From Candidatus Magasanikiibacteriota bacterium (GTDB lineage Bacteria > Patescibacteriota > Patescibacteriia > Magasanikbacterales > UBA922): a DNA stretch of 64,000 nucleotides. The stretch is taken from NCBI GenBank assembly GCA_021648085.1, contig JAKITS010000001.1:746759-810758 (forward strand), given 5' to 3'. The position numbers were made by a program, and so were the translations under genes. Shown piece after piece: positions 27,456-50,536 of the stretch; position 1 is the first letter of the stretch, and the number at the start of each line of letters is the position of its first letter. The notes below the pieces were generated by a model, which saw only the letters and a list, made by a program, of their open reading frames with translations, had not been told where the DNA came from and did not search any database.

Positions 27456-27520
27456 TGTTTTCACCTCCCTTCCTTTTTTGGATATTGTACATAATTTAAT
27501 TTATAAAAATTATTTTTAAT

Positions 27521-28396
27521 TTAAAGTAAACAAGATACTAAAACGGTCTGTTCCCACAAAGACAAAACATCTCCATTTATAAGCTCCTTAATCCTTTCTA
27601 GATCTAAATAATCCACTACACATATTACAACATCAGAATCAACAGTCACACCACTATAATCACCAGCATAACAACTTTCTGCTTTTTTAATCTCTTGTGA
27701 TGTTGGTTTTCTTGTTGCATTTTTAATTTCTTCTGCTTCAGCTCCTCCAATTTCATTGGATACACAAGTTATAAGAGAAGACATTGATATATTTAAAGAT
27801 TTTTCTTCATTTTTTTTACTATTTCCCTCTCTTGTTTTACAACAAACAATGTTATTTCCACCTTTACACAAATTTACTTTACATGTATTTGGATTTTGTT
27901 CACACAAACCTCTATCCAAATCTACATCTTCAAAAGCTAAACTAGGCAAGTCGCATTCTCCTATATTCCTACAAGAAAACCCATCTCCAATGTCTTTACA
28001 GACAAGTTCTGGATTATTACCACCACCATTTAAAGAATCGCCAGTAATTCCAGATAATACCATATTAAGTATAGCATAACTAGAAAAAATAATGAAAAGT
28101 CCAACAACTGCATAAATCATAGTATTCCAACCCTTTTTTATCTTTTCTTGGTTGCCAGCAGAGGTCATCCACAAAAAACCACCATACATAAAAACAGCCA
28201 AAGTGACAGAACCTACAACACCCAAAGCAACCTTTACCCCACCTCCCAAAATTGTATTTAAATCTGTTCCTGCACCAATTGGATTTTCCAATTTAACTAT
28301 TTCTCCAGCTTGTGCAAAAACCTTATCTATATTTAAAAATAAACCAAAAATAGTAAAACTTATAAATGTGTATATTTTTTTAAAATCTTTTTTCAT
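27521..28396 (-). CDS. TrbC/VirB2-like pilin with a Cys-rich extension
   Basis: LENPIG; YGGFLWMTSAGNQEKIKKG; Cys-rich C-terminal part. Confidence 0.85.
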   Translation of the reverse strand: MKKDFKKIYTFISFTIFGLFLNIDKVFAQAGEIVKLENPIGAGTDLNTILGGGVKVALGVVGSVTLAVFMYGGFLWMTSAGNQEKIKKGWNTMIYAVVGLFIIFSSYAILNMVLSGITGDSLNGGGNNPELVCKDIGDGFSCRNIGECDLPSLAFEDVDLDRGLCEQNPNTCKVNLCKGGNNIVCCKTREGNSKKNEEKSLNISMSSLITCVSNEIGGAEAEEIKNATRKPTSQEIKKAESCYAGDYSGVTVDSDVVICVVDYLDLERIKELINGDVLSLWEQTVLVSCLL

Positions 28397-28454
28397 ATTT
28401 ATTTAAAACAATTTTTTTTATTATACCAACTTTTTTTCATATAACATATTTAGT

Positions 28455-28709
28455 CAAGTGGAGTGGAGTTGAAAATCAAAGCTCACGTCATATTGAGCAA
28501 AACGCAGTGGAGTCGAAATATCTCGATGCTGTATTATTAGAACTTTGAATATTTAAAACCTTATTATACACTCCCGAGATCCTTCGACTTCGCTCAGGAT
28601 GACGTGATGGAAAGGTGATACTATCCCGAGATCCTTCGGCTTCGCTCAGGATGACGTGATGGAAAGGTGATGCTATCCCGAGATCCTTCGGCTTCGCTCA
28701 GGATGACGT
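28455..28709 (+). repeat. REP array A'-A-spacer-B-B-B
   Basis: Three tandem B sites with about 52-bp period and near-identical linkers gatggaaa(a)ggtgat(a/g)ctatcc. Confidence 0.9.
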
Positions 28710-28828
28710 GATTTTTTAATCACACTATATTGAGCTCCACCTCATAAAATCAACGTATCTCAGGACTAAATTACAAATAATTAAATAAGATATTAACCTT
28801 CTTTTTGTCTCATGCTTTTCTATCCTAG

Positions 28829-29329
28829 CTATTTTATAACTCTAAATTCTCCGGTCACGCTTAATGCGTCCAAAATAAAATCTATCATCATATAAGCTCC
28901 AAAAGCTATTACCAATCCAACAACTGCTGCGACCATCACATTTTTTCCCTCTTTGAATTTTTCTGGATTTCCAAAAGATAAAATCATTTTAAAGCCACCA
29001 TAAATAAACATAGCAAAAGCTAAACCACCAATAATAGAAAAAAGGAACTGTCCAACTTTTATACCAAACTCCACCAAATCACTAACATCATCGCAATACT
29101 GTCCTTTTACATCTCTGGTAAGCGCACAGTCTGGAATTAATTTTGAACTTTTTGGTGGATTTTTTATAGTTTGTGGTGCTGTTGGGGTTGCTGGAGTTGT
29201 TGAAGTTGGAGTTGGGGTTGTTGTAGTAGTAGGTGCGCCACTTACAACTAGAGGACTAAACAAAAATCCACCAATTATAAAACCTGGTAAAACCAACCAA
29301 ATTAAAAGTTTATTTTTAAAATTTTTCAT
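28829..29329 (-). CDS. TrbC/VirB2-like pilin with a Pro/Thr linker
   Basis: IYGGFKMILSFGNPEKFKEGK...VVGLVIAFGAY. Confidence 0.85.
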   Translation of the reverse strand: MKNFKNKLLIWLVLPGFIIGGFLFSPLVVSGAPTTTTTPTPTSTTPATPTAPQTIKNPPKSSKLIPDCALTRDVKGQYCDDVSDLVEFGIKVGQFLFSIIGGLAFAMFIYGGFKMILSFGNPEKFKEGKNVMVAAVVGLVIAFGAYMMIDFILDALSVTGEFRVIK

Positions 29330-29360
29330 AATAATATTTTATGTTCTAATGTTTTTGAAT

Positions 29361-29533
29361 CGAGATCCGTTCGACTCCACTTCGTTTCGCTCAATATGAC
29401 GTGAGTAAAAATACGTCATATTGAGTGGAGTGAAACGGAGTCGAAATATCTCGTGTTTACATCATTAGAACTATGAATATTTTATATTCTTGTGATATTG
29501 CCCCGAGATCCTTCAGCTTCGCTCAAGATGACG
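29361..29533. repeat. REP half-site plus A/B REPIN
   Basis: cgctcaatatgacg and cgtcatattgagtggagtgaaacggagtcg...gctcaagatgacg. Confidence 0.88.
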
Positions 29534-29588
29534 TGTTCTATTCCTAAATTTCTACTTTACAAACTTTATGAACTTTCAACTTTCTTTT

Positions 29589-30962
29589 CTAAAGTGTTTG
29601 CTGAATAATTTGTGCTGCTCTCTGCACTGCCTGAGCCTGAATCTTCAAAAAGTCTCCGCTATTTTCCAAAGGTTGCGAATAAACATCTACCATATCTGCA
29701 AAAGCTGTGTCCGCTGCGTCTATATCTTTTCCGTGATACCAATTTTTTGCAGTTAGAGCCTGAAAAGCGAACGCTTGCATCTCCACATCTTTTTGTTGCT
29801 GTGCAATTTGAGCTCTAAACGGACTTGGCTGGCTTGTTTTATCTGTATATTTTTTTACATTATTTTGTGAGGCGATAAATCTTACAAAATCCCAAGCCAA
29901 GTCTTGGTTTTCAGACTTGTTTACAACAGACTCAACCCAATAATTTGCTATATTTGTAGGTACCGCTTCATTTAACTGTGGAACAGGAATAACATTCAAA
30001 TTCATTTGTGGTGCACCTGCTTTTATTCTATTTTTGTCGAAAGCAAACCCAAGATAAAATACTGAAGATCCTCTCATAAAATCTTGCAGCGCATCACCTT
30101 TTCTTTTATTCCAAGAATATACATCGCGCGTAGATCTAGCAAAATCTGTATAAAATCCCAATGCCTTTAGAGTTGGGTGGTCTGGAGACGGTCTTTGCAA
30201 ACCTTCTGCAAAACGAACAGAAGAACCGTTTACCATATCCACTCCGCTTTGCATCATCAAAAGAGATAAAATATCAAAAGAATTATCTATATTTTTTGAT
30301 GTTCCAAGCGCAATTCCAGATTGCACAATATCTCCCGCAACATTAAATTTTGTAGATTTTATGACTGCATCTCTCAACTCTTCCCAATCTCTTGGCGCAA
30401 GAGGCACTCCAGACTTATCCAACAAATCTTTGTTATAATAAAGCGCCAAAGTATCTACCGCCAGAGGAAGTCCAAAAATATCTCCGTCTAATATTACATC
30501 TTCTGCAACAGTTCCTATATATTGAGAACGAATGGTGTTTATGTTTGGCATTGCCAAAGTCTCACTTGTTATAATTGTTTCTTTCGCCAAAGTTCCTTTT
30601 ACCTCTACATTTGCAACATTTATACTTCTTGGCATTGGTGCAAGCCTGCTTTTATATTTACCAAGCCAACGGGTGTGAAGAGATACAACATCTGGCCCAA
30701 CATCATCTGCTAGTGCGTTTGCAAATAATTTATCAAATTCATCGTAGCGAACCTGTCTTACATTTACTTTTACATAAGGACGAAGTTGTTGATATGCTAC
30801 AGCCATGTCTCTTAAATGGTCTACATCGTTGAAAACCGTCCAATAATTTAAAGTGACCGGTCGAATAGACTGTTGCTGTTCTTTGGACAAACCCTTACAT
30901 CCAAGACCGGTGGTAATGAGTAAGGAAAAAATTATAGAAAAAATGACAAGCTTGTTTTTCAT
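29589..30962 (-). CDS. Extracellular solute-binding lipoprotein (family 1, sugar-binding-like)
   Basis: Lipobox-like GLGC; TLNYW; GPDVV; GLPLAVDTLALYYNKDLL; AWDFVRF. Confidence 0.87.
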   Translation of the reverse strand: MKNKLVIFSIIFSLLITTGLGCKGLSKEQQQSIRPVTLNYWTVFNDVDHLRDMAVAYQQLRPYVKVNVRQVRYDEFDKLFANALADDVGPDVVSLHTRWLGKYKSRLAPMPRSINVANVEVKGTLAKETIITSETLAMPNINTIRSQYIGTVAEDVILDGDIFGLPLAVDTLALYYNKDLLDKSGVPLAPRDWEELRDAVIKSTKFNVAGDIVQSGIALGTSKNIDNSFDILSLLMMQSGVDMVNGSSVRFAEGLQRPSPDHPTLKALGFYTDFARSTRDVYSWNKRKGDALQDFMRGSSVFYLGFAFDKNRIKAGAPQMNLNVIPVPQLNEAVPTNIANYWVESVVNKSENQDLAWDFVRFIASQNNVKKYTDKTSQPSPFRAQIAQQQKDVEMQAFAFQALTAKNWYHGKDIDAADTAFADMVDVYSQPLENSGDFLKIQAQAVQRAAQIIQQTL

Positions 30963-30966
30963 AGAT

Positions 30967-31902
30967 TTATTTAAATGCTTGAAATATAAAATTTACAAGT
31001 GCATAACTAGAAAGTATAACCAAAATTCCAATACTCGCCCACACAAGTGTATCCATTGCTTTCTTTTGTCGTTCCGAATTTCCATGAGCTGTCATCCACA
31101 AAATACCTGCGTAAATGAAAATTATCAAAGCCAATGTTCCAACTACTCCCATTATAGTTTTGATAACTCTTCCTATTAAAGCCGGAATATCTGTTCCAAG
31201 TTTATTTAAAGATTCAGCAGGCGGAAGCTTAAATGGTGTTTCTTTTTCATCTTTTGGTGCTGGTGGCGTGGGTGGTTTAGTTGCAGAATAAAAAGCTACA
31301 GAATGATCTTTCGCACAATTATAGCTTCTCTGATATTTTTGTACCAAATCTTGACAATCTGATGCTGTATTACAAGTCTTTTTTTCATCTGCACAATATT
31401 TAAAAAATGGATCTTTAGATGGTACACATACTTGAGAATTAGGACAAACACCTGTTTGCTCACATGATTGTGTGGCTGCTAAAAAACAAAAAAAATCTTC
31501 TTGTTTAATCTGACAATTATTGATTTCAGCTTTATAATAATAATGAAGAAAAGCCGTATCCTCTATAAACCCTTCAATGTTTGTATTATCACATGAACTC
31601 TGATCTTTAATTATTTTTTGCGAAAATAATATTATATTATTTACTATTTGCGGTTTATAAGGATAACAACTATTTTCGGGTATCATATTATTAATCATAT
31701 CAACAAAAGAAAACCCCTTATTTATAATAAATTTAGTTCCTGGATGATTTTTTGTACAATCTTGACCTGGAGAAGATGTAGATGATGCTGTTTTACCTGA
31801 TAAGTTAACATCACAAACACAATCCTCTGCTTTAACATTCCCACCAACAAAAAACACCCCAAAAACAACAAATCCTAAAATTAAAAACCTAAAATTCCTC
31901 AT
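30967..31902 (-). CDS. TrbC/VirB2-like pilin with a large N-terminal Cys-rich domain
   Basis: C-terminal IYAGILWMTAHGNSERQKKA..TLVWA.IG; Cys-rich N-terminal region. Confidence 0.85.
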   Translation of the reverse strand: MRNFRFLILGFVVFGVFFVGGNVKAEDCVCDVNLSGKTASSTSSPGQDCTKNHPGTKFIINKGFSFVDMINNMIPENSCYPYKPQIVNNIILFSQKIIKDQSSCDNTNIEGFIEDTAFLHYYYKAEINNCQIKQEDFFCFLAATQSCEQTGVCPNSQVCVPSKDPFFKYCADEKKTCNTASDCQDLVQKYQRSYNCAKDHSVAFYSATKPPTPPAPKDEKETPFKLPPAESLNKLGTDIPALIGRVIKTIMGVVGTLALIIFIYAGILWMTAHGNSERQKKAMDTLVWASIGILVILSSYALVNFIFQAFK

Positions 31903-35790: not shown

Positions 35791-36105
35791 CGAGATCCAT
35801 TCGACTTCATTCCATTTCATTCCATTTCACTCCATTTCGCTCAGGATGACGTGATTTAACATACGTCATATTGAGCGGAGTGAAACGGAGTCGAAATATC
35901 TCGATTCAAAATCATTAGAATTATGAATATTTAAAACCTTGTGATATTGTCCCGAGATCCTTCGACTTCGCTCAGGATGACGTATGTGTGTTTTCCGCTC
36001 AGGATGACGTTTTTTTGTTCACATTATATTGAGCGGAGTGAACTTAGGATGACGCGTGTATTTTACGTCATCTTGAGCGGAACGAAGTGGAGTCGAATGG
36101 ATCTC
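35791..36105. repeat. REP array with an expanded B site (30-nt loop insertion), a full REPIN and several half-sites
   Basis: cgact-tcattccatttcattccatttcactccatt-tcgctcaggatgac; REPIN at about 35864-35982. Confidence 0.9.
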
Positions 36106-36204
36106 CGTGCAATATAACCAGAATATAAATAATTAAATTAAAACATTAGTCCGTCTTTCTTTTTGTTTTTCTGTCTAATGTTATTTGCATAACGTATCAT
36201 GTCC

Positions 36205-37278
36205 TTATGTATTCACATGAAAGTAAATAACATCTCCATCTTGAACTTCATAATCTTTTCCAGCCAAACGCATTTTTCCTGTGCTTTTTATATCATTCCA
36301 ACCACCGTTATCTACAAAATCTTGCCAACCCACTACATCTGCCTTTATAAAACCTTTTATGAAATCTGTATGAATTACTCCAGCGGACTCTGGCGCAAAT
36401 GTATTTTCTTTTACAGTCCAGGCTCTAGTTTCCTGCACTCCACTTGTAAAAAATGTTACTAATCCTAAAATTTCATAGCCTTTACGGATCAACTTATCCA
36501 AACCAGTTTCTGATACTCCACTTTCTTTTAGGTATTCAAGTGCTTCTTCCTCACCCAATTCTGCAAGCTCTGCTTCCAATTTTGCACTTACATAAATATG
36601 TTGAATTTCATTTTCTATTACAACTTTTTCTTCTTCTTTGAAGTCCTCGCTTACATTTACTATATACACCATCGGTTTAAGTGTAATTAGTTGCAATTCT
36701 TTCAAAATAACCTGCTCTTCTTCATTATATTCCAAAGATCTGGCAGGCTGATCCGCCTCCAAAGTTGTATTTATTTTTTCCAATAATGCCAAGTTTGATA
36801 TTAATTCTTTTGCATTTGAACTTTTCAATTGTTTTTTTGTAGCTTCCAAACGTTTTTGCACTACCTGCCAATCTGCCAAAATCAATTCTGTATTTATAAC
36901 TTGAGCATCCTTTTTAGGATTTGCTTCGCTGTCTACATGAGTTACATTTGAATCTGCAAAACTACGCACCACATGTACAATAGCATCTACCTCGCGAATA
37001 TGAGAAAGGAATTTATTTCCCAAACCTTCTCCTTTTGAGGCACCTTCTACCAAACCTGCAATATCTACAAATTTTATAGCTGTAGGAATTATTTTCAAAG
37101 ATTTTGAAGAATCACTAAGCGCAGAGAGTCTTTCGTCTGGAACCTCAACAATACCAACATTTGGTTCGATGGTACAAAAAGGATAATTTTGCGCTTCTGC
37201 CTGCTTACTTCTGGTAAGCGCATTAAAAAGTGTTGATTTGCCGACATTTGGCAACCCAACGATTCCTATTGATAACAT
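36205..37278 (-). CDS. ychF: Redox-regulated ATPase YchF
   Basis: GIVGLPNVGKSTLFNALT; NYPFCTIEPN; DIAGLV.GAS.GEGLGN.FL; GKDY.VQDGD. Confidence 0.97.
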   Translation of the reverse strand: MLSIGIVGLPNVGKSTLFNALTRSKQAEAQNYPFCTIEPNVGIVEVPDERLSALSDSSKSLKIIPTAIKFVDIAGLVEGASKGEGLGNKFLSHIREVDAIVHVVRSFADSNVTHVDSEANPKKDAQVINTELILADWQVVQKRLEATKKQLKSSNAKELISNLALLEKINTTLEADQPARSLEYNEEEQVILKELQLITLKPMVYIVNVSEDFKEEEKVVIENEIQHIYVSAKLEAELAELGEEEALEYLKESGVSETGLDKLIRKGYEILGLVTFFTSGVQETRAWTVKENTFAPESAGVIHTDFIKGFIKADVVGWQDFVDNGGWNDIKSTGKMRLAGKDYEVQDGDVIYFHVNT

Positions 37279-37307
37279 GTTTTAAAATTAAAGTTTATAA
37301 AGAGTTC

Positions 37308-37426
37308 ACGTCATATTGAGCGGAACGCAGTGGAGTCGAAATATCTCGATGCTGTATCATTAGAACTTTGAATATTGATATTCTGGTGATACTTTCCCGA
37401 GATCCTTCGGCTTCGCTCAGGATGAC
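37308..37426 (+). repeat. A/B REPIN
   Basis: Canonical copy immediately upstream of ychF. Confidence 0.9.
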
Positions 37427-37509
37427 GTGATTGTTTATCTTACAATTCCTTATAGTTTACACAAAAAAAACCGCGCTGTCTAGTATGACAACGCGAGTAT
37501 TAAAGAATT

Positions 37510-37953
37510 TTACATAACCCATTGAGGATCGGCCGATTCTGCCTCATCATCTTGCAATTGGCGGTTGCAAGATAAAACTTGGCCGAAAGACCACTCAAGA
37601 GCCTCTTTTTTTTCAAAAAAAGTTTTAACCAAAAGCCTATTTTTATTTACCAAAGCCTGTTCTCCAGGCTTAATAAATTGCCAATGTGTGTTAGTGTGAA
37701 TCTTCCAATTCACACTAAGCAAACCATCTGCATTCAGAAAAAAACTTACTCCATTTAGTACTAGCTCATTTTCTTTTTTCAAAAATTTATGAAGACCATT
37801 ATGACCTTTCATAAAATTCAACTCTACATCCAACATTACAACAAAAAGTCCACAAACGGACTTTGCAACCTTTTCTCTTTGGCGACAAAGAAAGACTTCG
37901 GACGCCTTTAATACAGCCATCTCAATGTTTTCAAGAACTTTCCACTTACCCAT
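37510..37953 (-). CDS. Hypothetical protein
   Basis: About 147 aa, with a GGAGG SD upstream and a terminator-like hairpin at about 37466-37497. Confidence 0.6.
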   Translation of the reverse strand: MGKWKVLENIEMAVLKASEVFLCRQREKVAKSVCGLFVVMLDVELNFMKGHNGLHKFLKKENELVLNGVSFFLNADGLLSVNWKIHTNTHWQFIKPGEQALVNKNRLLVKTFFEKKEALEWSFGQVLSCNRQLQDDEAESADPQWVM

Positions 37954-38501
37954 CACTCCCCTCCTAATATTGTAAAGCCAGAAAATTCTGGCGACAAAGA
38001 TCTTCCTTGATCTCTTTTCTTTAAATTCTACTATTAAAAGCTAAAGAAAAAAGCAGTTTTTTAAGGAAAAACTGCTAAAACCCATACTACTGAATAAACC
38101 CTTTTAACTAGTTAGAAGCTTGTTTACATCGCGTACGCCGACATAACTTCTAAAAAGTAGAGTAAAGCCAGAAACTTTATTTTTCGATAGGTAAAGTTTG
38201 TAAACCTATTCTTTGCCAATCCCAATCGTCTAAGTTTTCGCAGCCTGATGTCGACCAACAAGAATACTTAACTCCATGGTTTTGGTTTTTTGTCTTGTTT
38301 TTAGTCCGAATATGTAAATGACTGCAAACAAGATCCCTTCGAAATGACTTTTGGTTTTCTCTCCAAGGCGTCAAAGACCTCAGTATTTGCCTATTAGGCT
38401 TTGTGTTATAGCGACCATACTGTGGACACTCAAGCCAATCGCCTGTTCACCAATTTCTCCTTTTCGTTCGGCGATTCGGATTTTTTGAAATCATGATAAT
38501 A

Positions 38502-38530
38502 ACTATACCCCATTTTTAAACTTTTGTCAA
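38502..38530 (-). promoter_or_regulatory. Consensus sigma70 promoter
   Basis: TTGACA-17-TATAGT. Confidence 0.65.
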
Positions 38531-38746
38531 GTCTTTTGACCCAAAAACCTAAAATTCTTCCTCAAATTTGACTTATTTTAGCGAAAAACTTAAAATATAC
38601 CATTTTAAACAAAACGAAACTTATTATATAATACTAAATAAAATAAAACGGAATCAAAATGACATTTTTTTGTTCACGTCATATTGAATGGAACGCCTGC
38701 CTGCCGGCAGGCAGGAAGTAGAGTCGAAATAACATGACTTAACATA

Positions 38747-39144
38747 CGTTATCCTAAGCAGAGCAAAGAGGAGTCGAACGGATCTCGTATTTATTTCACT
38801 ATTTATTAATCCCCAAACAAATCTCTCATTTCTGGATTTAATTTTTTAATTAAATTTAGTTTTTTAGCACGCACCCAACCTTTCAATTGTTTTTCACGTT
38901 GAATAGCATATAATGAACTATCGTGTTCTTCAAAATATAAAAGTTAATTTATATTATATTTTGCAGTAAAACTATTTTTGTCTTTTTTATATTTATGTTC
39001 TATTGCTCTTCGTTCTAGTTTATTTGTAATACCAATATAATATACTGTTTTGCGAGAGTTGGACATTATGTAAACATAAAATTTTTTCATAATTATATTC
39101 TGGTGATTTTATCCCGAGATCCTTCGGCTTCGCTCAGGATGACG
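38747..39144. mobile_element. Candidate autonomous REP-GIY-YIG-REP element
   Basis: Degenerate REP (38747-38787), left spacer half, gene, right spacer half, then B site (39115-39144). Confidence 0.55.
38806..39090 (-). pseudogene. Small GIY-YIG nuclease with one in-frame TAA (codon 49)
   Basis: Manual translation: MKKFYVYIMSNSRKTVYYIGITNKLERRAIEHKYKKDKNSFTAKYNIN*LLYFEEHDSSLYAIQREKQLKGWVRAKKLNLIKKLNPEMRDLFGD. Confidence 0.9.
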
Positions 39145-39206
39145 TAACGGAAAGGTGATACTTTCCCGAGATCCTTCGGCTTCGCTCAGGATGACGTGTG
39201 GAAAAT

Positions 39207-42200
39207 TTAAATAGCAGGAACTGTATCTACAGCCACAGGTTCTATCACTGGAGCAGGCTCTACCACAACCACTGGTTCTGGAATTGGTTCTTCTACAATT
39301 GGCTCAGGAATCACAGGTTCTGGTGTCGGTTCTATAATAGGCTCCGCAACAACAGGCTCAGGAGTTGGTTCTGGTACAGGCTCTATTAGAGTTGGAGTAG
39401 TCGTAGGTGTTTCCACGACAGGAACAGTTGTAGTTGGTGTTTCTACCAGAATTTCAGGTGTTGTTGTTGGGGTTGAAGTAGGAACTATAGGCTCTGGAAT
39501 TGGCTCTACTACCACAGGAGCTGGTCCAATTCTACGGCTAGCGATTACAACCCAGTCAAAAGTCGCATTACTTGTTCCACTTTGAAGTTCTTTTACGGTA
39601 AACCCGCTCACATCTTTTTGGCTTACAAAAATTCCATTTGCCTCGGCTGTAAGAGTAATAGAAACTTTAATTGGCTTGTCTGCATCTATAATTTCGCTTT
39701 CTACCGCGCTAAATAAAACTTTAAACTCACCATCTACCAAAGTTCCAGATCCAGAATATATGAGTTCAGTATCTTGAGATTGAAGCGCGTACAAATTCTT
39801 GTCTCCTTCTGTTGTTATAATCTTTGTAATAAATCTACCTTCCACATCTACACTCCATGTATTATCTATAGCTATTAGGCTTCTTACATTTATAATAGAA
39901 AAGTTATTTAAATTTAGATCATTTGAAATTGGCAAAATACTACTTCCGCTTGGTACTACTGTCAATTGAGATGGGTCTGCTTGAATATTTATTGCGTTGT
40001 CTTGAGCTACAGAAATTAAGTCTTGTTGCATTTGAGCGATAGTTTGGTTCTTATTATTTACCCAACCAGTTTTGATAAGTCCCATTATTTTTCCAGTTGA
40101 AGTTGTAAGTGAATCTAGTGCAATTCCCACAATTCCCACCACATTGTCGCCAGTGTCTTTTGTAGGATCATATCTCATAGCATGCCCTGGGACAGAAGCG
40201 GTAATGAGTAAATCTCCACGCTCAATTTGTCCATTTTCTGCACTTACTTTAATAGGAACACGACCAACCATTGCCATTACTGCGGTATGTTGTGTCTTAC
40301 CATTACCTACTGTAATTGTAGGATTTGTAGAAACCACACCCGCCACTTCTTGCACATAAGAACCTTGGCTTTTTGTATACATATCACTAGAACTAGAATC
40401 TACCACTAAAACATCTCCAGCTTCTACAATATAAGCTGGGTTTATATCTACTCGCTCTGCCAAGTCTCCCGGTGCTCCTGGAGTACCAACTGTTGCAGAA
40501 GATGCAAACAATTGTCCAGCAGCGCGAACAGTACCATCTCCTTCTACAGAGAATTTTGCAGTTCCGCCAGTTCTTACAGAAAATAGATAATCACCTGGAG
40601 AAGTGAAAGCTGTATCTGTGTCAAAAATATGTGCTGCGTCTGGAATAGAACCAGCTGTAAATGTAATTGCACCTCTTAATATTGTTTTGGTAATACTTGC
40701 ATTACCCAAAGTTACAGAATTACTTCCGTTTCCTGTTGTGGTATGTCCTATCACTATTTCATTTGTATCTCCACTCGCAAAGGCTCTTGTGTTATACCCA
40801 AGATAAAGAGAGTTGGTTGATGTTGCATTTGCTATTGAACCACCAGTTATAGATCTACCCGCCCCATAACCAACGGCTGTATTATCATCTCCTGTAGTAT
40901 TTGAAGAGAGAGCATATGAACCAAATCCAGTATTATTGTCCCCTGTGGTGTTAACCATAAGAACTGAACTACCTATTCCAGTATTATCAGTACCTATTGT
41001 ATCCCTAAGAGTTTCTGTACCAAATGCTGTATTTCCAGAAGTACTAGTAACAGACTTTAAAGTATTAAACCCAACTGCTGTATTATAGAATCCGGTAGTA
41101 TGGCCTTCACCTGAATTTATACCTACGAAAGTATTATAATATCCTTCAATTCCTGAAGTATTAGACAAATTAGTCCCCCCATCTCCTATTATCAATGAGC
41201 CTGTCATTGCGGTTGGGCGGTAAAGGACAACTGTTCCATCCAATGCTACTTTTCCTGATATGTCTAGTGCATAGCTAGGAGTAGTAGTATTTATTCCCAC
41301 AAATCCTGTTGCAGGTCTTAGGTTTAAGTCTCCATATCCTGTGTTGATACTTGCTACTTCACTTTCTACTTCGAATACTGATATGTCGTCAAATTCAACA
41401 TAACCTGTGGAAGCTGATTGCCCCAACACAAGGCTTGTCCCTCCTGCTCCTACAAAGGTTATATCGAAGTATTGCCAATCTGTTGAACTTGTTCCTGTCC
41501 ATAAACTAGATGCAAAATTCACAACCCTAGGGGCATTTGTTCCATTACCTCTTGCCCAACCTGTAAGTCTATATGTTTTTCCAACCACTATTATTGACTG
41601 AAAAGCTCCAGCATTTGCAATTCCTGTTCCTGCTACTCTTAATATTTGCAGTCCACCATGAGGATTAGTTGTTTCTTTTGTTATTGTAGGAAAAGATGTT
41701 TCACTCCATTCCCCAACTCCACTCTTTTCCATATCCCCATCAATCAATACACTCTTTCCATTCAAAGTAAGCTCATTCCCCATATTTATAGTCCTAGAAA
41801 CATAAGCATTTCCATCTACTTCCAAATTATAATTTGCTGTTGTTGTGTTTATTCCCACATATCCTGTTGCAGACATCAAATTTATATCTCCAGCTCCAGT
41901 ACTGATAGTTCCGTCTGTTTGATTGTGATACATTTCTATATATTGAGTTTTTGATGTCGCAGCCGCTGTTGCAGAATAAACTCTAAAATGTGTATTTGTA
42001 GTAGTTGCAACAGAATAATCATTAGTTTTATTTGCATTCGCAACAACACTAATGCCATAATCATTTCCTCCAGCTATAATATTTAAAGATTTATATAAAC
42101 CAGCAGCATTTGCGCCATATAACCCAGGATTTGCAACAGAAGCCCCAAAATAAATTGGTTTGAAATTCATTAATACTTGGTCGTACATTGATATTGCTCC

Positions 42201-45200
42201 AAGCGCAGAATCCAAAACTAAATACCCTTTTCCTGTTGTTATATATCCATTTGTTTGATCGTGGGTGAGGCTTAACCACTCAGATGTACTTTGATTTGCA
42301 GAATGGATGAATACTGTTGGGTTTGTTTGTAGGGTGTGAGAGAAATTATAAGTATAATCATTAAGCTCTGATATTAATATTGAATTGGCTGTTATGCCTG
42401 TATGTAATGTGACCGATGGTAACGTTTGAAAACTATTTCCTGGCATAATAGAACCATAAGCTGCTGTTGATCTTATATCTTTATTTTGTGTTATATATGT
42501 TATGCCCGCAATAAAAGTATTTCCATCAAAATAAGCAGCCCCATCAACCTCAAGTTTTCCACTTACAAATAAATCGTCATTTGCATTTAATGTGTGTGAA
42601 GTAGAACCAGCATCACCAATTACTGTAATTCCTGTTGTGTCTGGGATTAAGTTGATATCATAAGCTCCATAAGTAATCAGATTTAATGAATCTGCGTCCA
42701 GACCAAGCCCTCCTCTTGTTGCTGAATTATACATAAAAGCTATACCAATTTGACCTGCGGCATTAATTGTAAGCGGAGTTATTGTGGTATCTGTTAGAGT
42801 TGTAATCATAAGAGCTCTTGCACCCGGATCCCAATTTGTCCCAGCAGCAGTAATATCCAAAATTGTATTTGTATTTCCCAAAGTAGGAGTTTGAGTAAGA
42901 GAAATCATTGGTGAGGTTTGGTTTATTCCAGCAATATTCAAAGTTCCGTCAAAATATGAATCCCCATTTACACCCAATTTATCATGTACATAAAAGTCTT
43001 GCCCGTTCATCACAAAATTTGCGTCTGCGATAGATTCAGCAGGGGAACCTACCAAGAAGTTGCTCGTTATATATGAATCCACCGAAGATGTTGCGGAAAA
43101 AACAACCCTCCCATTATTAGATTCATCTATCAAATTAATTTGACCATATCTTCCATTTCCACCCGCACCAATTCTAGCTGATATAGAACCATTATTTGCT
43201 CTAAATGTTATTTGTGCATTTCCATTTGTATCATAAAATTCACCTGTTCCTTCTCTATTTATTACAAAAACATCAGAGCCAGCTTCTGTTATTTTAAATA
43301 AGTTTGAAGTCCCAAATGAATTTGTATTAAATGTAAATGCAGTATCGCTAGCGCTAGCATCTGTAAGGTTCGATGTAAACAAAGTCGAACTTGCAAAAGT
43401 TAAAGTTGAGGAGTTTGTGCCGTTGCTCATTCCAAAGTTTCCGTTTAATAACAACCCACTTCTTCCAATACTCAAACCTCCTTTGATGTCTACTCCATTC
43501 TCAAAACGAGAGAAATTGAATACCTGCAAATTGTCAATTTGTGCTGTACCTATCTCTGTATTTGAGATTGTTGCTCCTGTGATGTCTATTATTAATAAAC
43601 TATCATTTGAAGTGGCAGTCTGATAAACATAATTTCCCTTTAATGCCAATCCACCAGGTCCAGACACACTTAGAGACGAAACAATTGATAAATTTGATTT
43701 ATCTGTTATGTCTATTATTTTTAGTGTAGCATTAGAATAAGTTGACACATAAGCATAATTTCCTGAAATTTCTATATGTTCAGGTGCATATAAATCTGCT
43801 GTTCCTGGTTTAAAAATAGATATTGTAGTTGGACTTTCTGGATTTGAAACATCTACTACAGCAATACTATTATTACTAAAAGCTGTAAGATATGCATAAT
43901 TTCCTACAACTCTTACATCACGCGTACCATCCAAATCTCCACCAACTCCATTTGGTTGATAAGTTGAGACAAGCGAAGGATTGTATGGATCTGAAATATC
44001 TGCTATTACCATTTTATCATTCACAGAAGTTGTCAAATATGCATAATTTCCTACCACATCAAAACCAAACATATTTGTTAAAGTTCCACTTGCATTAAAT
44101 GTAGAGACCAAGGTTGGATTATATGGATCTGAAATATCTACTATTGTCATTTTTCCTCCTAATAATGCTGCAATATATGCATAATTCCCTACTATTTTAA
44201 TCGTTCTTGCTCCATTTAAATCCCCATTTAATCCTCCTGGTTGAAAAATTGCTGTTGTGGTTGGACTTGCTGGATTTGTTATATCTATTATTACAAGTTG
44301 ATCTTTATCATAAGAAAGAGCATAAGCGTAATTATTTGCAATAGCAACATCTGATATATTATCCAAATCTCCATTTAAACCTCCAGGTTGAAAAATTGCT
44401 GTTGTGGTTGGACTTGTTGGATCTGCAATATTTATTATTACAAGCTGATCTTTCGCTCCAGCGCTAGTATAAGCATAATTACCAGAAATTCTTACTTTAG
44501 ATATTCCATCCAAATCTCCATTTAAACCCCCAGGTTGAAAAGTACTTACTATTGTAGGATTTAAAACATTACCTTTTGTTAAAGTCTGCCCAGCAAAAGT
44601 AGAGGCGCCACTTATATATGCAGTTCCACTTACTGTTAAACCATAACCAGGTGTTGTTGTATTTATTCCCACAAATCCTGTGGCAGGTCTTAGGTTTAAG
44701 TCTCCATATCCTGTGTTGATACTTGCTACTTCACTTTCTACTTCGAATACTGATACATCGTCAAATTCTACATATCCTGCACTGGTACAATCAGACTCTA
44801 AAAAAATGCTTGCCCCTGCTGCAACAAATGTAATATCAAAGTATTGCCAAGTTGTTGATGTTGTTCCATTCCACTGTGCAGTTGCATTTGGAGAATCTAT
44901 ATTAGGTTTGAACGTCCCATCACCCCTCGCCCATCCTCTAACCCTGTATTTCTTACCACTCGTAACGATACTTTGAAAAGCTGAAGGTTGATTAGTACCA
45001 TTGTAAGCTATTCTTAAGTTTTGAACTCCTGTGACTGGGTCTGTTGTTTCTTTTGTAAGAATTGCATTTGAACCTACAGCCCAAGCACCTACCCCATCAG
45101 TCTCCATATCCCCATCAATCAATAGACTCTTTCCATTCAAAGTAAGCTCATTCCCCATATTTATAGTCCTAGAAACATAAGCATTTCCATCTACTTCCAA

Positions 45201-48200
45201 ATTATAATTTGCTGTTGTTGTGTTTATTCCCACAAATCCTGTTGCAGACATTAAGTTTATATCTCCAGCTCCAGTACTGATAGTTCCGTCTGTTTGATTG
45301 TGGGTGAGGCTTAACCATTCAGATGTACTTTGATTTGCAGAGTGAATGAATACTGTTGGGTTTGTTTGAGCTGAATGAGCAAAATCATATCCTCTATCTG
45401 CTGTTTGTGTAAAAATAATTGAATTAGCCACATCATCCAATCCCCAAATCATAGTATCTACAGTTTGACCTGTCGACCAATCTAATCTTGAATCTTGAGA
45501 ATTACCAAATTGTAATTCTGTGTTATTCAACATTACAATATCTCCATTCGCACCAATAGTTGTAAGACCATCAAAAACAGCTGTTGAGTCAAAATAAGCA
45601 GCCCCATCAACCTCAAGTTTTCCACTTATAAATAAATCGTCATTTGCATTTAATGTGTGTGAAGTAGTCCCAGCATCACCAATTGTGATAACAGTTGAAT
45701 TTCCTATTATTTGATCTACTCCTGTGATGTCATTTCCTGCCAACGACATTACACCACCCAATGTCACACCTGCTGTAAATGAAGCGGAACTATCAAAAAA
45801 TGAATAGCCGTCAACCTCAAAAGCTCCACTTACAAACAAATCATCATTTGTGGTTAGATCATGACTGTCTGTTCCAGCGTCACCAATTGTCACATTATTT
45901 AAATTTCCTATTATTTGATCTACTCCTGTGATGTCATTTCCTGCCATCAAAATATTCCCCCCCATTGATAAAGTACTTGCGATATATGCTGTTCCGCTTA
46001 CAGTTAATTTATATCCAGGTGTTGTTGTGTTTATTCCTACATTGCTACCAAGAATAGTCATTGCCTCATTGCCACCACCATCCGCAGAATTTGAAACAAA
46101 GAACCGCATTCGTCCTTTTTCAGCGCCAGCAGTCATATCTTGATTTAGCATCAGGATTGAACCATATTTAGTGCGTGTACCTACTGAATTTGCTAAGAAG
46201 TATTCAATACCAACATTGTTTAAACTATTATATTGTGAACCATCAAGATTTATTTTAGTTTTATTTACTGATGTACTCTGTATATCCAATATACTTTGCG
46301 GTGTAGAAGTTCCAATACCTACATTACCAGCAGCTAATATCGTCATTTTTGGAGAATTATTTGTCCTAAAAGTCAAATTGTGGTTGCTAACCGCTCCCAT
46401 AAAAACATTGGACCCGCTTGCATTTGTTCCAAAACCCCCTTCAACATCATTTGTAGTATCTCTGAAAATCATTAAACTATTTCCAGCATTGTAAAAACCA
46501 GCTTGTGCTGTAGTCCCAATTGGTGTTTCAGGAGTACCCATAGTGAAAAGATGATTTGGTATATTTGTCCCAATACCCACATAACCAGCATTATCAATTA
46601 TCATTCTATCTTGTAGTACAGCACTACTATCAGCTGTGCTAAATTTCATCCAACCACCATTTACACTTGCACTTCTATCTTGAACGAGAATTGACCCTTT
46701 TATAGCATTATTATAACCACGAAAATTAAGTGTTGGTTCATATGGACTAGCAGTTGATCCAGCAGACCCTTTTGTACCAATAGATATTGCAGCGCCACCA
46801 CTAGCTTCAACATTTAATTCATTAGTTAAAGTAGAAGTTGTTCCTATTCCTACATTTCCCTTTAGGAAAGTGTCAGTAATATTATCATTCCCCAAAGTAA
46901 CGGAATTACTTCCGTTTCCTGTTGCGTCGTATCCTATTACTATTTCATTTGTGCCACCATCTGCGAGTGCTTTTGTGTTATAACCAAGATAAAGAGAATT
47001 ATTTCCATTTATATTTGCTGATGTACCATTTGTTAAATATCTACCAGAACCCCAACCTAAAGCTGTATTATTAGATGCTACATTTGCATATAAAGACGCT
47101 CGTCCTATTACTGTATTACCACTTCCTCCTATATTAGCTGCAAGAGCAACAAAACCAATTACCACATTTTGATTTCCTATAGTCAATGCCTTAGCAGTAT
47201 TATAACCAATTAAGGTATTTTCAAGACCTGCTGTATTTGCACTTCCAGATCCAAGTCCTACAAAAGTATTATAATATCCTTCATTTCCAGTAGTATTTGA
47301 CAAATTTGTTCCTCCATCTCCTATTATCAATGAGCCTGTCATTGCGGTTGGGCGGTAAAGAACAACTGTTCCATCCAATGCTACTTTTCCTGATACATCT
47401 AGTGCATAGCTAGGAGTAGTGGTGTTTATTCCCACAAATCCTGTTGCAGACATTAAGTTTATATCTCCAGCTCCTGTTGAAATTACTCCATTTGTTTGGT
47501 CGTGCGTTAAGCTTAACCATTGAGTATTATCTGAATCTGGATCTGTGGCAGAATGTATAAATATTGTTGGGTTTGTCTGATTTCCATGGTCAAAACTTTT
47601 TGTCTGATTTCCAACTTTTGTAAATACTATTGATTGTGAATTTGTACCCAAAGCCCAAATTAAAGTTTCTGCTGTTGCTTCATTTGTGCTCCAGTCCAAA
47701 AATGAATCACTAGATCCACCAAAAGTTATATTTCCGTCATCCAACATAAATAAATCTGAAGTTGAAAGCCTTCCATCAAAAAACGAATTACCATCTACTT
47801 CTAGCCTACCACTTACAAATAAATCATCATTTGTGGTAAAAGCACGACTAGAACTTCCGGCATCTCCAACTGTAATATATGTTGAATTTCCTATTATTTG
47901 ATCTACTCCTGTGATGTCGTTTCCTGATAATGCCAAATTTCCACCTAAAGTGGATAAACCACTAATATACGTAGTACCGCTCACAGTAAGAGCGTAGTTT
48001 GGTGTACTTGTTCCAATTCCAAAATTTCCAGTTCCAATTACTACATTTTGGTTGTTTGTTGTATTTAAACTTAATGTACTTGCCGAATCTATTGTAAGAG
48101 CTCCACCAGTCATTGAAATAACTCCACCGTCCACATCGCCATTCAAGTGAAGTGTGCTAGTTCCAATATATAAATCGTTTTCAATAAATACTGCGTTTCC

Positions 48201-49280
48201 TACTCCAAGCATATCAGCCACATACATATCATTTCCACTCAAAGCAAATGTTGAAGTTGTAATAGCTTCTGAGCCAGTAGTTCCAATAAACAAGTTCTGA
48301 TTTATATAAGAATTACTATCAGCAGATAATTTAATTCCTGTTAAATTTGTACTTTTTTTAATATAAAGAGAACCTGCTTGATTTAACGCACCAATATAAT
48401 TAGTAACATAATTAGATGCTTGAGATATTTGAAATCCAACACTATTACCATTTTGAACTTTAAGATGTGCTCCACCAGAAGTTTCACCTTGTACTGTCAA
48501 GCTTGTAGTGTCGTTACTTACCACTTTCAATAAAACATTTGAATTTGTAGAAGTTCCAACCTCCATACTTCCTGCGAGAAATCCATCTCCGTCTTCGTCT
48601 ACTCGGAATTTTTCTGCGCCGTTTAAAGCTATTCCAAACAAAGTTTCATTTGCATCGGCAGAAGCAGGATTGATATAAACCAAACCACCACTCACTCCGC
48701 TAGATTGAGGATCGCCAGAAAAAGTTAAGTTTCCGTTTGAATCTGAGAGAGGAATGTAAACCGAGCTAGAAGCAGTCGCGGTCTCGTAGCCCATAAGGTA
48801 TTTACTGTTCATTGCAAAAGGCGATGCTGTGATTTGTTTTCTAGGAGAAAGTGCAGTGCCATCTACCCAAACTTCCAAGTAAATTGTTGAATTATTTTTA
48901 AAAATCGTAGAATCTATACTATTTGTAATTCCTGATCCCAAATCTACAGAGAAAATACCTTGGCTTGGTGTTATAGAAACTGTAGAAGTACTTGCCAAAG
49001 TTCCACCAGCAGTATAAAGCAAACTTCCTCCGCTAGATGCGTCGTAAAGCAAAAATGCCATTGATTTTGTAGTAGTCACAGAAGCACCGCTTTCCAAAAG
49101 TTTACCTTGATAAGAAATGATAGTTGGCGGAGTTGCAGTTTTTACTGTATTGGTTAGGAGGAGGCCTCCTAAGACAAAAAGTGAAATTAGAAAAGCAAAA
49201 GCAAGCCGTGTAAAGGCCATTTTTGGCAATCTAAAGAGTTTAGTTTTTACAACCCAATTACTTTGTGGCATGTTTTTCAC
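39207..49280 (-). CDS. Giant fibre/adhesin-like surface protein with G.VGI.TTTP repeats, an LVIVD block, two carbohydrate-binding-like domains, a C-terminal peptidase-G2/IMC-like chaperone domain and a Pro/Glu tail
   Basis: ISYQGKL N-terminal domain; many GNVGIGT/GFVGINTTTP joints; GDLAER...GDVLV...AGVVST.P...GRVPIKV...IERGDLL...PGHAM. Confidence 0.85.
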   Translation of the reverse strand: MKNMPQSNWVVKTKLFRLPKMAFTRLAFAFLISLFVLGGLLLTNTVKTATPPTIISYQGKLLESGASVTTTKSMAFLLYDASSGGSLLYTAGGTLASTSTVSITPSQGIFSVDLGSGITNSIDSTIFKNNSTIYLEVWVDGTALSPRKQITASPFAMNSKYLMGYETATASSSVYIPLSDSNGNLTFSGDPQSSGVSGGLVYINPASADANETLFGIALNGAEKFRVDEDGDGFLAGSMEVGTSTNSNVLLKVVSNDTTSLTVQGETSGGAHLKVQNGNSVGFQISQASNYVTNYIGALNQAGSLYIKKSTNLTGIKLSADSNSYINQNLFIGTTGSEAITTSTFALSGNDMYVADMLGVGNAVFIENDLYIGTSTLHLNGDVDGGVISMTGGALTIDSASTLSLNTTNNQNVVIGTGNFGIGTSTPNYALTVSGTTYISGLSTLGGNLALSGNDITGVDQIIGNSTYITVGDAGSSSRAFTTNDDLFVSGRLEVDGNSFFDGRLSTSDLFMLDDGNITFGGSSDSFLDWSTNEATAETLIWALGTNSQSIVFTKVGNQTKSFDHGNQTNPTIFIHSATDPDSDNTQWLSLTHDQTNGVISTGAGDINLMSATGFVGINTTTPSYALDVSGKVALDGTVVLYRPTAMTGSLIIGDGGTNLSNTTGNEGYYNTFVGLGSGSANTAGLENTLIGYNTAKALTIGNQNVVIGFVALAANIGGSGNTVIGRASLYANVASNNTALGWGSGRYLTNGTSANINGNNSLYLGYNTKALADGGTNEIVIGYDATGNGSNSVTLGNDNITDTFLKGNVGIGTTSTLTNELNVEASGGAAISIGTKGSAGSTASPYEPTLNFRGYNNAIKGSILVQDRSASVNGGWMKFSTADSSAVLQDRMIIDNAGYVGIGTNIPNHLFTMGTPETPIGTTAQAGFYNAGNSLMIFRDTTNDVEGGFGTNASGSNVFMGAVSNHNLTFRTNNSPKMTILAAGNVGIGTSTPQSILDIQSTSVNKTKINLDGSQYNSLNNVGIEYFLANSVGTRTKYGSILMLNQDMTAGAEKGRMRFFVSNSADGGGNEAMTILGSNVGINTTTPGYKLTVSGTAYIASTLSMGGNILMAGNDITGVDQIIGNLNNVTIGDAGTDSHDLTTNDDLFVSGAFEVDGYSFFDSSASFTAGVTLGGVMSLAGNDITGVDQIIGNSTVITIGDAGTTSHTLNANDDLFISGKLEVDGAAYFDSTAVFDGLTTIGANGDIVMLNNTELQFGNSQDSRLDWSTGQTVDTMIWGLDDVANSIIFTQTADRGYDFAHSAQTNPTVFIHSANQSTSEWLSLTHNQTDGTISTGAGDINLMSATGFVGINTTTANYNLEVDGNAYVSRTINMGNELTLNGKSLLIDGDMETDGVGAWAVGSNAILTKETTDPVTGVQNLRIAYNGTNQPSAFQSIVTSGKKYRVRGWARGDGTFKPNIDSPNATAQWNGTTSTTWQYFDITFVAAGASIFLESDCTSAGYVEFDDVSVFEVESEVASINTGYGDLNLRPATGFVGINTTTPGYGLTVSGTAYISGASTFAGQTLTKGNVLNPTIVSTFQPGGLNGDLDGISKVRISGNYAYTSAGAKDQLVIINIADPTSPTTTAIFQPGGLNGDLDNISDVAIANNYAYALSYDKDQLVIIDITNPASPTTTAIFQPGGLNGDLNGARTIKIVGNYAYIAALLGGKMTIVDISDPYNPTLVSTFNASGTLTNMFGFDVVGNYAYLTTSVNDKMVIADISDPYNPSLVSTYQPNGVGGDLDGTRDVRVVGNYAYLTAFSNNSIAVVDVSNPESPTTISIFKPGTADLYAPEHIEISGNYAYVSTYSNATLKIIDITDKSNLSIVSSLSVSGPGGLALKGNYVYQTATSNDSLLIIDITGATISNTEIGTAQIDNLQVFNFSRFENGVDIKGGLSIGRSGLLLNGNFGMSNGTNSSTLTFASSTLFTSNLTDASASDTAFTFNTNSFGTSNLFKITEAGSDVFVINREGTGEFYDTNGNAQITFRANNGSISARIGAGGNGRYGQINLIDESNNGRVVFSATSSVDSYITSNFLVGSPAESIADANFVMNGQDFYVHDKLGVNGDSYFDGTLNIAGINQTSPMISLTQTPTLGNTNTILDITAAGTNWDPGARALMITTLTDTTITPLTINAAGQIGIAFMYNSATRGGLGLDADSLNLITYGAYDINLIPDTTGITVIGDAGSTSHTLNANDDLFVSGKLEVDGAAYFDGNTFIAGITYITQNKDIRSTAAYGSIMPGNSFQTLPSVTLHTGITANSILISELNDYTYNFSHTLQTNPTVFIHSANQSTSEWLSLTHDQTNGYITTGKGYLVLDSALGAISMYDQVLMNFKPIYFGASVANPGLYGANAAGLYKSLNIIAGGNDYGISVVANANKTNDYSVATTTNTHFRVYSATAAATSKTQYIEMYHNQTDGTISTGAGDINLMSATGYVGINTTTANYNLEVDGNAYVSRTINMGNELTLNGKSVLIDGDMEKSGVGEWSETSFPTITKETTNPHGGLQILRVAGTGIANAGAFQSIIVVGKTYRLTGWARGNGTNAPRVVNFASSLWTGTSSTDWQYFDITFVGAGGTSLVLGQSASTGYVEFDDISVFEVESEVASINTGYGDLNLRPATGFVGINTTTPSYALDISGKVALDGTVVLYRPTAMTGSLIIGDGGTNLSNTSGIEGYYNTFVGINSGEGHTTGFYNTAVGFNTLKSVTSTSGNTAFGTETLRDTIGTDNTGIGSSVLMVNTTGDNNTGFGSYALSSNTTGDDNTAVGYGAGRSITGGSIANATSTNSLYLGYNTRAFASGDTNEIVIGHTTTGNGSNSVTLGNASITKTILRGAITFTAGSIPDAAHIFDTDTAFTSPGDYLFSVRTGGTAKFSVEGDGTVRAAGQLFASSATVGTPGAPGDLAERVDINPAYIVEAGDVLVVDSSSSDMYTKSQGSYVQEVAGVVSTNPTITVGNGKTQHTAVMAMVGRVPIKVSAENGQIERGDLLITASVPGHAMRYDPTKDTGDNVVGIVGIALDSLTTSTGKIMGLIKTGWVNNKNQTIAQMQQDLISVAQDNAINIQADPSQLTVVPSGSSILPISNDLNLNNFSIINVRSLIAIDNTWSVDVEGRFITKIITTEGDKNLYALQSQDTELIYSGSGTLVDGEFKVLFSAVESEIIDADKPIKVSITLTAEANGIFVSQKDVSGFTVKELQSGTSNATFDWVVIASRRIGPAPVVVEPIPEPIVPTSTPTTTPEILVETPTTTVPVVETPTTTPTLIEPVPEPTPEPVVAEPIIEPTPEPVIPEPIVEEPIPEPVVVVEPAPVIEPVAVDTVPAI

Positions 49281-49430
49281 AATTCACAGAAAATATATAA
49301 ATTCGGCCCAACAAGCTAAACCGCGAAAAACTCTTCCACGGACGAGGACTACCCTCTTTGGGTTATTTTCTGCGTACTAATAAAAAACATTTGTAAACTT
49401 AGAGTATATTGTATTCTTGTAATTCTATCT

Positions 49431-49774
49431 CGAGACCCTTCGGCTTCGCTCAGGATGACATACTAGAAAAACACTTTTTATCTCAGTAAAATAGCTGACT
49501 GAGCTAAAATAGTTTTCTAGCTATACTCTTACTATATTTTAACATAAAATGAAAGATTTTTCACACACAAACTGTGGATAAGTTTTATACTTTTTTTCTT
49601 CCTTAGGAAATATTATTTAAAAACGCTTTTTTATAGTAGAATAAGCTATAAAAATAAAATTAGAAAAATATATTTTTTGGTGTTTTTTGTATATTATGCT
49701 TCGCTCCGTTCGGGGGATGACGTGATGGAAAGGTGATGCTGCCCCGAGATCCTTCGGCTTCGCTCAGGATGACG
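49431..49774 (+). repeat. REP B half-sites
   Basis: cgagacccttcggcttcgctcaggatgac (49431) and cgagatccttcggcttcgctcaggatgacg (about 49745). Confidence 0.85.
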
Positions 49775-49841
49775 TGAATAGTTTCTGTCTCATGCTATAT
49801 GTATCGTATCTCATAATTATTTTTATTTTTAATTTAAAAAC

Positions 49842-49870
49842 TTGACATATAAAATTAAAGGTTCTAAAAT
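49842..49870 (+). promoter_or_regulatory. sigma70 promoter
   Basis: TTGACA-17-TAAAAT upstream of 49935. Confidence 0.7.
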
Positions 49871-49934
49871 TTAAATACCGCTCATTTACAATATTTTACA
49901 CAGATGTTTTGTGTAAAAAAAGGAGGAATTCAAA

Positions 49935-50324: not shown

Positions 50325-50365
50325 GACTCAAAAACCCTCGTTTTTAACGAGGGTTTTTTTATTCA

Positions 50366-50525: not shown

Positions 50526-50536
50526 TGTCTATTTCA

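Follow-up and report, generated by a model that had tools for sequence, protein, structure and literature searches.

What is a small nuclease gene, broken by a stop codon, doing in the middle of an inverted repeat doublet, and has it any part in the origin of the many similar repeats scattered over the same genome? These questions are raised by a locus of a Candidatus Magasanikiibacteriota bacterium (assembly GCA_021648085.1, contig JAKITS010000001.1). The locus lies within a stretch of 64,000 nucleotides (positions 746,759 to 810,758 of the contig) that is called the window below and to which all coordinates refer unless the genome is named. On balance, we favour the view that this stop-interrupted, single-domain GIY-YIG gene within a CGTCAT-headed doublet is a decayed member of the Ssn nuclease/SRM-repeat system, an assignment that we hold with reasonable, not full, confidence. 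The locus is probably a fossil selfish element.

A single GIY-YIG gene interrupted by one stop codon

The gene, which encodes an Ssn-like single-domain GIY-YIG nuclease, occupies 38806–39090 on the minus strand and consists of 94 codons plus stop. Read in the frame 39090..38806, it contains a single in-frame TAA at codon 49 (plus-strand 38944–38946, as assembled), as the initial annotation had recognized. The read-through protein matches the Pfam GIY-YIG profile PF01541 over residues 3–79, that is, over profile positions 1–78 of 78 (E 9e-15, 55 bits, with a cut-off of 22.6), and the domain profile search detects no further domain beside GIY-YIG. Among 103 homologues, 22 alignment columns have at least 90% conservation and no gap in the window protein, which keeps the conserved residue in every one of them; opposite the stop codon, the homologues carry K (n = 39) or R (n = 36). 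By sequence, the read-through protein has no relative in the PDB, and it yields no significant match in NCBIfam. The closest intact protein in a large protein collection, from a Candidatus Magasanikbacteria assembly, is 77% identical, and no near-identical intact orthologue above that level of identity was found there.

The genome is a single contig of 984 kb with 32% G+C, scored as 99.9% complete, and contains one copy of the 94-codon subfamily by tblastn. The only other match to PF01541 lies within a 420-aa frame (genome positions 475889–476116) that is probably uvrC. An intact paralogue, the presence of which the initial annotation had contemplated, was found in the 984-kb genome neither by tblastn nor by the PF01541 profile search.

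The gene divides the spacer of a repeat doublet

CGTCAT-type repeats with their heads pointing outward frame the gene, two of the B type upstream and a degenerate one downstream. Immediately 5' of the gene lies a B-type repeat on the minus strand (39114–39144), with its CGTCATCC head on that strand, and beyond it a second B-type repeat (39166–39196, minus strand), which is a 52-nt tandem copy that includes the half-spacer (a 44-nt direct repeat, 93% identical, at a spacing of 52). On the 3' side, the plus strand carries a degenerate 41-nt repeat of the CC-stem long type (38747–38787), in which the head CGTCAT has become CGTTAT.

Between these repeats and the gene are two short segments, of 17 nt (38788–38804) and 23 nt (39091–39113), that align with the left and right spacer halves, respectively, of gene-less doublets elsewhere in the window. 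The left flank of the gene matches the left doublet half as far as ...CACTATTT, and the right flank matches the right half starting at ...TATATTCTGGTGAT. The two doublets compared, both on the plus strand, are a 106-nt A/B doublet of the short-spacer class (50367–50472) and an A/B doublet with a mutated B head, GGATGGCG (62378–62484); the degenerate repeat at 38747–38787 aligns with the A repeat of both (the alignments span 50364–50476 and 62375–62487). Thus, as the initial annotation had stated, the pieces on either side of the gene are the two halves of one doublet spacer, and the gene lies exactly between them.

From this correspondence the initial annotation derived the gene-less doublets from the gene-bearing unit by deletion. 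Common spacer halves in the gene unit and the gene-less doublets are indeed what one would expect if the former were an autonomous element and the latter had arisen from it by internal deletion. The reverse order, with a gene entering a doublet, is less likely in our view; this locus alone does not distinguish it from the loss of the gene from the unit. The stem types of the ends bear on the same point: the gene-bearing unit ends in CC/CC stems and most doublets in AT/CC, so this unit is not the direct parent of those doublets.

An A-type CGTCAT-headed repeat lies just to the left of the gene unit (38677–38738, plus strand); its head and tail are as in other A-type repeats, and it encloses a nested GC-rich palindrome, GCCTGCCTGCCGGCAGGCAGG (38695–38715). 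Similar CTGCCGGCAGG cores lie within two further repeats, at about 704.3 kb and 833.2 kb of the genome.

The repeat population of the genome

The 27-nt core of the right-hand B repeat is present in 22 copies in the window, compared with 0 in 100 shuffles, and in 58 copies in the whole genome of 984 kb; a looser search for repeat heads finds 200 genome-wide. The repeats are of four main kinds, namely, the B type (30 nt, CC stem), the A type (40 nt, AT stem), long CC-stem types of 40 nt and 50 nt, and an NTS-like C type. They are overwhelmingly extragenic: 189 of the 200 heads lie outside open reading frames of at least 120 aa, which make up 83% of the genome. Nearly all intergenic spacers of the window contain repeats, and across the genome the repeats are concentrated at 100–131 kb and 742–842 kb.

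There are 39 head-out doublets of 86–192 nt, mostly with an A repeat on one side and a B repeat on the other. In all-against-all alignments of the doublets including 200-nt flanks, the start of homology lies 0–5 nt outside GTCAT for 388 of the 857 pairs aligned, and the flanks are unrelated in 167 of 254 full-length doublet pairs; with boundaries shared and flanks unrelated, the doublets are units with sharp common ends. By inspection, no duplication beyond an inverted CAC/GTG is visible in the doublet flanks. The closest non-adjacent pair of doublets is 95.9% identical and the majority are 84–92% identical, which indicates that the population is old. Half-doublets also form tandem arrays, such as three B repeats at a 52-nt spacing (window 28578–28708) and five at a 68-nt spacing (genome 108188–108487), and these 52-nt and 68-nt arrays recall BIME clusters.

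The NTS-like third type of repeat (TGTCATTCTCAGCTTGACTGGGAATCCAG) forms doublets of 86–88 bp, for example, at 15952–16039 of the window, and accounts for about 20 other heads genome-wide; this genome lacks a gene that goes with it. The same type flanks the decayed homologue, with five stops, of a genome of the same genus (locus L021).

A search of window positions 36000–51000 for Rfam families, at E up to 0.1, returned none, so the repeats there match no known RNA family. The initial annotation had treated the single repeats as REP palindromes, a view that does not survive folding. With standard DNA parameters, single repeats as ssDNA give folds that are not better than those of shuffled sequences (z 0.06 to 1.09), and the classic REP palindrome was rejected for single units on this ground. 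It is the whole doublet that folds: that at 50367–50472 forms one long hairpin of -19.5 kcal/mol (z -4.0), and 0 of 200 shuffles folds as well. Within each unit, the two variable bases that follow GTCAT can always pair with the two that precede ATC, in the combinations AT/AT, CC/GG, CT/AG, TC/GA and GC/GC. This pairing within the unit is kept even though the A:B hairpin gains mismatches, which argues for the short stem inside each single repeat mattering in its own right.

Correspondence with the Ssn nucleases and their repeats

The Ssn family, as described by Chenal et al. (2025, Nat Commun, PMC11893778), consists of 94-aa GIY-YIG nucleases that go with inverted CGTCAT-headed hairpin repeats (NTS/SRM), an NTS being a palindrome between a CGTCAT head and an ATC tail. 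According to the same paper, 71% of the ssnA homologues have such repeats around them, and in 42% both flanks have them. Four purified Ssn proteins, from Neisseria and three other homologues, bind the repeat hairpin only as ssDNA, and cut only the strand that carries it, a few bases 5' of the CGTCAT head (PMC11893778). SsnA of N. meningitidis is a 94-aa single-domain protein, and Ssn mutants at Y6, Y17 and E64 lose cutting (PMC11893778). The statement of the initial annotation that CGTC-tagged repeats have no established enzyme has thus been overtaken, given that Ssn nucleases bind and cut ssDNA beside repeats of this kind.

The locus in the window resembles this published system in that a 94-aa single-domain GIY-YIG protein is encoded between inverted repeats composed of CGTCAT head, internal stem and ATC tail, in that many extragenic copies of the same repeat are present, with clusters near surface-protein genes, and in that the family is found in many phyla. 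The read-through protein retains Y7, Y18, R28, H32 and E66, with the TAA at codon 49 in the same frame; its residues are matched to the published Y6, Y17 and E64 by position only. Unlike in the published system, the repeat core here is of a GAGCG...-loop type that has only a 5-bp stem and falls outside the SRM motif, the doublets are heterotypic (A/B), the gene is broken, and the host belongs to the CPR/Patescibacteria.

Membership of the window protein in the Ssn family (CDD cd10448) is likely, and is argued from two kinds of homologues. Four of these, L009, L011, L078 and L093 (46–52% identity), have GTCATTCCCGCG...GCGGGAATCCA on both sides; the flanks of L009, L078 and L093 fit the published NTS consensus, and those of L011 nearly so, its stem ending in C. 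Another homologue, L075, which is 49% identical to the window protein, comes from Niabella aurantiaca DSM 17617, a genome that is given in Supplementary Data 4 of PMC11893778 as having a cd10448 ssnA homologue. For Niabella aurantiaca, only a 1.6-fold SRM enrichment is reported in the same source; judged by the GTCATGCTGAGCG-type repeats of its relatives, it belongs to the class that the published SRM motif misses.

The published degenerate SRM motif has one site in the whole genome and none at the gene, compared with 0–2 sites in five simulated genomes, so by the operational definition of PMC11893778 the repeats of this genome are not SRMs. Across the homologues, the motif matches the flanks of 8 of 103 loci, compared with 59 of 103 when GTCAT plus a stem is required. 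The GAGCG-loop class of repeats was also found at 27 labelled loci from several phyla, and the Firmicutes locus L062 has the same B-type core as this genome. Repeats of the form GTCAT-NNT-GAGCG...ANN-ATC are a large, cross-phylum, Ssn-associated class outside the published motif; because this class escapes the motif, surveys that are based on the motif undercount such systems.

The repeat strings of this genome have no match in the supplements of PMC11893778, no CPR names were found in the 12 of its 14 supplementary files that were searched, and its main text does not use the terms MITE, REPIN, Patescibacteria, lagging or tandem. A search of the literature for GIY-YIG enzymes with REP, REPIN or MITE, or for later work on Ssn, returned nothing beyond PMC11893778 and a 2026 preprint (10.64898/2026.09.22.753630), in which SsnA-associated repeats serve as a benchmark class, that is, as an already known class of repeats. 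The pairing of enzyme and repeat has been in print since 2025, so the locus opens no new class.

Homologues across phyla and their flanks

Homologues of the nuclease are present in 28 of 61 related genomes, and a further 80 loci come from many phyla. We searched ±130 nt around the genes for GTCAT-led hairpins pointing outward, in a set of 103 homologues (one of 104 genes was dropped for too little flank, and the loci of the window itself were excluded), with 388 shifted positions within the same loci as controls. Hairpins were found upstream of 48 homologues, downstream of 51, on both sides of 40 and on either side of 59; the corresponding counts among the 388 controls were 6, 6, 1 and 11. A relaxed test that accepts any orientation and a GTCAY head gives 66 of 103 homologues and 32 of 388 controls. 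The enrichment of inverted CGTC-type repeats in the flanks of homologues, which followed from the initial annotation, is therefore borne out, and so are two further expectations, namely, that the type of repeat tracks the phylogeny of the nuclease and that the repeat head goes with the presence of the gene. In a maximum-likelihood tree built quickly from 104 proteins, of which 49 rows had a repeat-type label, 6 changes of repeat type are needed, whereas 500 shuffles of the labels never needed fewer than 12 and averaged 17.8. Left out were 44 rows that had no hairpin, 6 classed as 'other' and 5 that were mixed; kinship inflates tests of this kind. Among the 61 relatives, by a hand tally, a homologue is present in 17 of the 19 genomes with the head GTCATMYTGAGCG and in 11 of the 42 without it. 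This head occurs 155 times in the present genome, by far the most, and 22 times in the same-genus neighbour, the homologue of which is heavily decayed, with five stops.

In a region so dense in repeats, which occur in nearly every intergenic spacer of the window, a decaying GIY-YIG gene could have come to lie beside some of them by coincidence. We consider this extremely improbable, given that the gene splits one doublet spacer exactly and that the layout recurs in unrelated phyla far above the controls.

The flanks of the homologues also bear on the order of events at this locus, that is, on whether a free-standing GIY-YIG gene was inserted, in a homing-like manner and with the repeats serving as its landing site, into the spacer of an existing doublet, in which case the doublets would not be products of deletion. 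Such a secondary arrival would account for the CC/CC ends of the gene unit among doublets that are mostly AT/CC, for loci L012 and L004, where the gene adjoins a complete doublet and is not inside one, and for the 44 of 103 homologues that have no flanking hairpin by the strict test, several of which have variant heads or the opposite orientation. Against it, the layout repeat–gene–repeat with heads outward on both sides is dominant across phyla, with 40–41 of 103 homologues compared with 2 with heads inward, which fits an ancestral unit. Homing enzymes of the GIY-YIG fold, as generally known from I-TevI and the Seg proteins of T4, resemble the window gene in placing this fold in a small, selfish-looking gene. 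They use a DNA-binding domain, whereas the window protein is a single domain and has no separate DNA-binding domain of the homing type; furthermore, inverted repeats frame the gene here, and the published Ssn relatives cut ssDNA, not duplex target sites. We consider secondary arrival unlikely, and continue with the reading of the repeat–gene–repeat arrangement as the ancestral unit.

Gene neighbourhood and a possible host function

Several open reading frames of the window (1588–8508, 39207–49280, 50537–53998 and 25843–31902) belong to giant, secreted-looking proteins and to genes with T4SS-pilin domains. The giant proteins have 2306 and 3357 aa with LVIVD repeats and 1153 aa with CarboxypepD_reg domains, and the genes with a T4SS-pilin domain number four. 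Housekeeping genes with flanking repeats include nrdD, ssb, rpsF and ychF.

Instead of being selfish, the repeats could be kept by the host to mark single strands, either incoming or in replication, for cutting by Ssn, controlling recombination at surface genes, and could multiply by recombination or slippage. A function of this kind has been proposed for Neisseria, where NTS are clustered near surface genes and SsnA reduces transformation with DNA that NTS flank (PMC11893778). The concentration of the repeats in two regions of the genome, the giant LVIVD-repeat proteins and T4SS-pilin array of the window, and the tandem arrays with 52-nt and 68-nt periods all agree with it. A maintained function would not, however, be expected to leave the sole gene broken and the same-genus copy with five stops, and the repeats lie beside the housekeeping genes ssb, rpsF, ychF and nrdD as well; nor does the idea sit easily with doublets that have sharp common ends and unrelated flanks. 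We regard host maintenance as quite improbable, and the decayed selfish element as the preferred reading.

Probable decay and possible mobility of the unit

The initial annotation saw in the repeat–nuclease–repeat unit the autonomous parent of the repeats of this genome. As a present-day parent the unit has to be given up: it is the sole copy, it is interrupted by a stop codon and the head of its downstream repeat is mutated. Its CC/CC ends weaken the idea further. The system looks dead in this genome, considering that the only copy of the gene is broken, that the downstream head is mutated and that the doublets are mostly 84–92% alike. About 200 repeats accompanied by only a dead nuclease gene in a complete small genome imply that repeats can outlive their enzyme.

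In its active state, the system may have worked as follows. When intact, the enzyme would have cut single strands at the outer border of every repeat; doublets that lack the gene would likely be internal-deletion derivatives, similar to MITEs or REPINs, of the repeat–gene–repeat unit, and would have spread as units, the DNA being joined by host replication or repair. This spread has probably stopped, leaving an inactive system with orphan repeats. A hydrolytic GIY-YIG nuclease is not known to form a covalent intermediate for strand transfer, and a GIY-YIG hydrolase alone is not known to join DNA or transfer strands, so that any transposition model needs host functions. A clean filled/empty doublet site was not found in comparison with the same-genus genome G001, which is fragmented at repeats; the one orthologous spacer compared contains rearranged repeat remnants in both genomes.

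Beyond this locus, Ssn units in general may be, or may have been, mobile elements that shed MITE-like doublets via ssDNA at the replication fork, with the nuclease cutting and the host joining, a tentative idea that is possible and, in our judgement, somewhat unlikely. What points to it is the position of the gene exactly in a doublet spacer, the end of doublet homology at the reported Ssn cut and a bias of the heads towards the lagging-strand template. With GC skew placing the origin at about 840 kb and the terminus at about 300 kb, 59 of 77 CC-type heads are on the leading-strand sequence, which is the lagging-strand template, and the heads in convergent or divergent gene contexts have the same strand bias (12 vs 2); tandem arrays inflate these head counts, so that the bias is a lead and not a result. 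If mobile, Ssn units would represent a route of transposition without a transposase. The idea of a unit similar to an insertion sequence and analogous to RAYT/REP has already been published as a hypothesis, and the link between enzyme and repeat is established: the NTS-ssnA-NTS layout is called identical to that of an insertion sequence in PMC11893778 and is likened there to RAYT/REP/BIME. A gene unit and gene-less doublets with common spacer halves bear on this mobility, which that paper leaves open; no later literature on the mobility of Ssn units was found.

REPs and REPINs, reportedly treated together with RAYTs by Bertels and Rainey in 2011, are similar to the present repeats in being extragenic, in forming inverted doublets and tandem clusters, in the single-copy gene located between its own repeats and in an enzyme that acts on ssDNA hairpins (here by analogy with the published Ssn). 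They differ in that no Y1 transposase is present here, that the head is CGTCAT and not GTAG and that the enzyme here is a hydrolytic nuclease. For REP/RAYT, the latter being a Y1 transposase of the IS200/IS605 type, Nunvar 2010 and Ton-Hoang 2012 are among the sources cited in PMC11893778. RAYT was rejected as the mobilizer of the repeats of this genome: no match to the Y1 transposase profile PF01797 was found in the single contig, 99.9% complete, and the same search was positive in 6 of 14 control genomes. The proposal that a GIY-YIG enzyme drives the repeats in place of a RAYT thus holds as regards the missing Y1 transposase and the association of the subfamily with the repeats; mobilization by the nuclease, its other half, is hypothetical.

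Bacterial MITEs such as Correia/NEMIS, as generally known, share with the doublets a unit size of about 105–140 bp, long terminal inverted repeats, folding into one hairpin, sharp ends and dispersed copies. They differ from them in that no target-site duplication could be made out here and that the presumed parent encodes a nuclease, not a transposase.

The intact close homologues, together with the A-type and B-type repeats, offer material in which new ssDNA-cutting specificities could be sought.

Other small inverted-repeat elements

At 21246–21404, the window contains an inverted-repeat element, about 160 bp long and with the ends GGAGTCTCTGATAA / TTATCAGAGACTCC, that is unrelated to the repeats above. 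It is missing from the orthologous spot of the same-genus genome (locus L113), where at least 30 similar copies are present elsewhere. Conversely, L113 contains, at about 1150–1285, an inverted-repeat insert of about 135 bp that is absent at the matching site of the window (about 21060), so that the two sites form a clean filled/empty pair, though for another small element.
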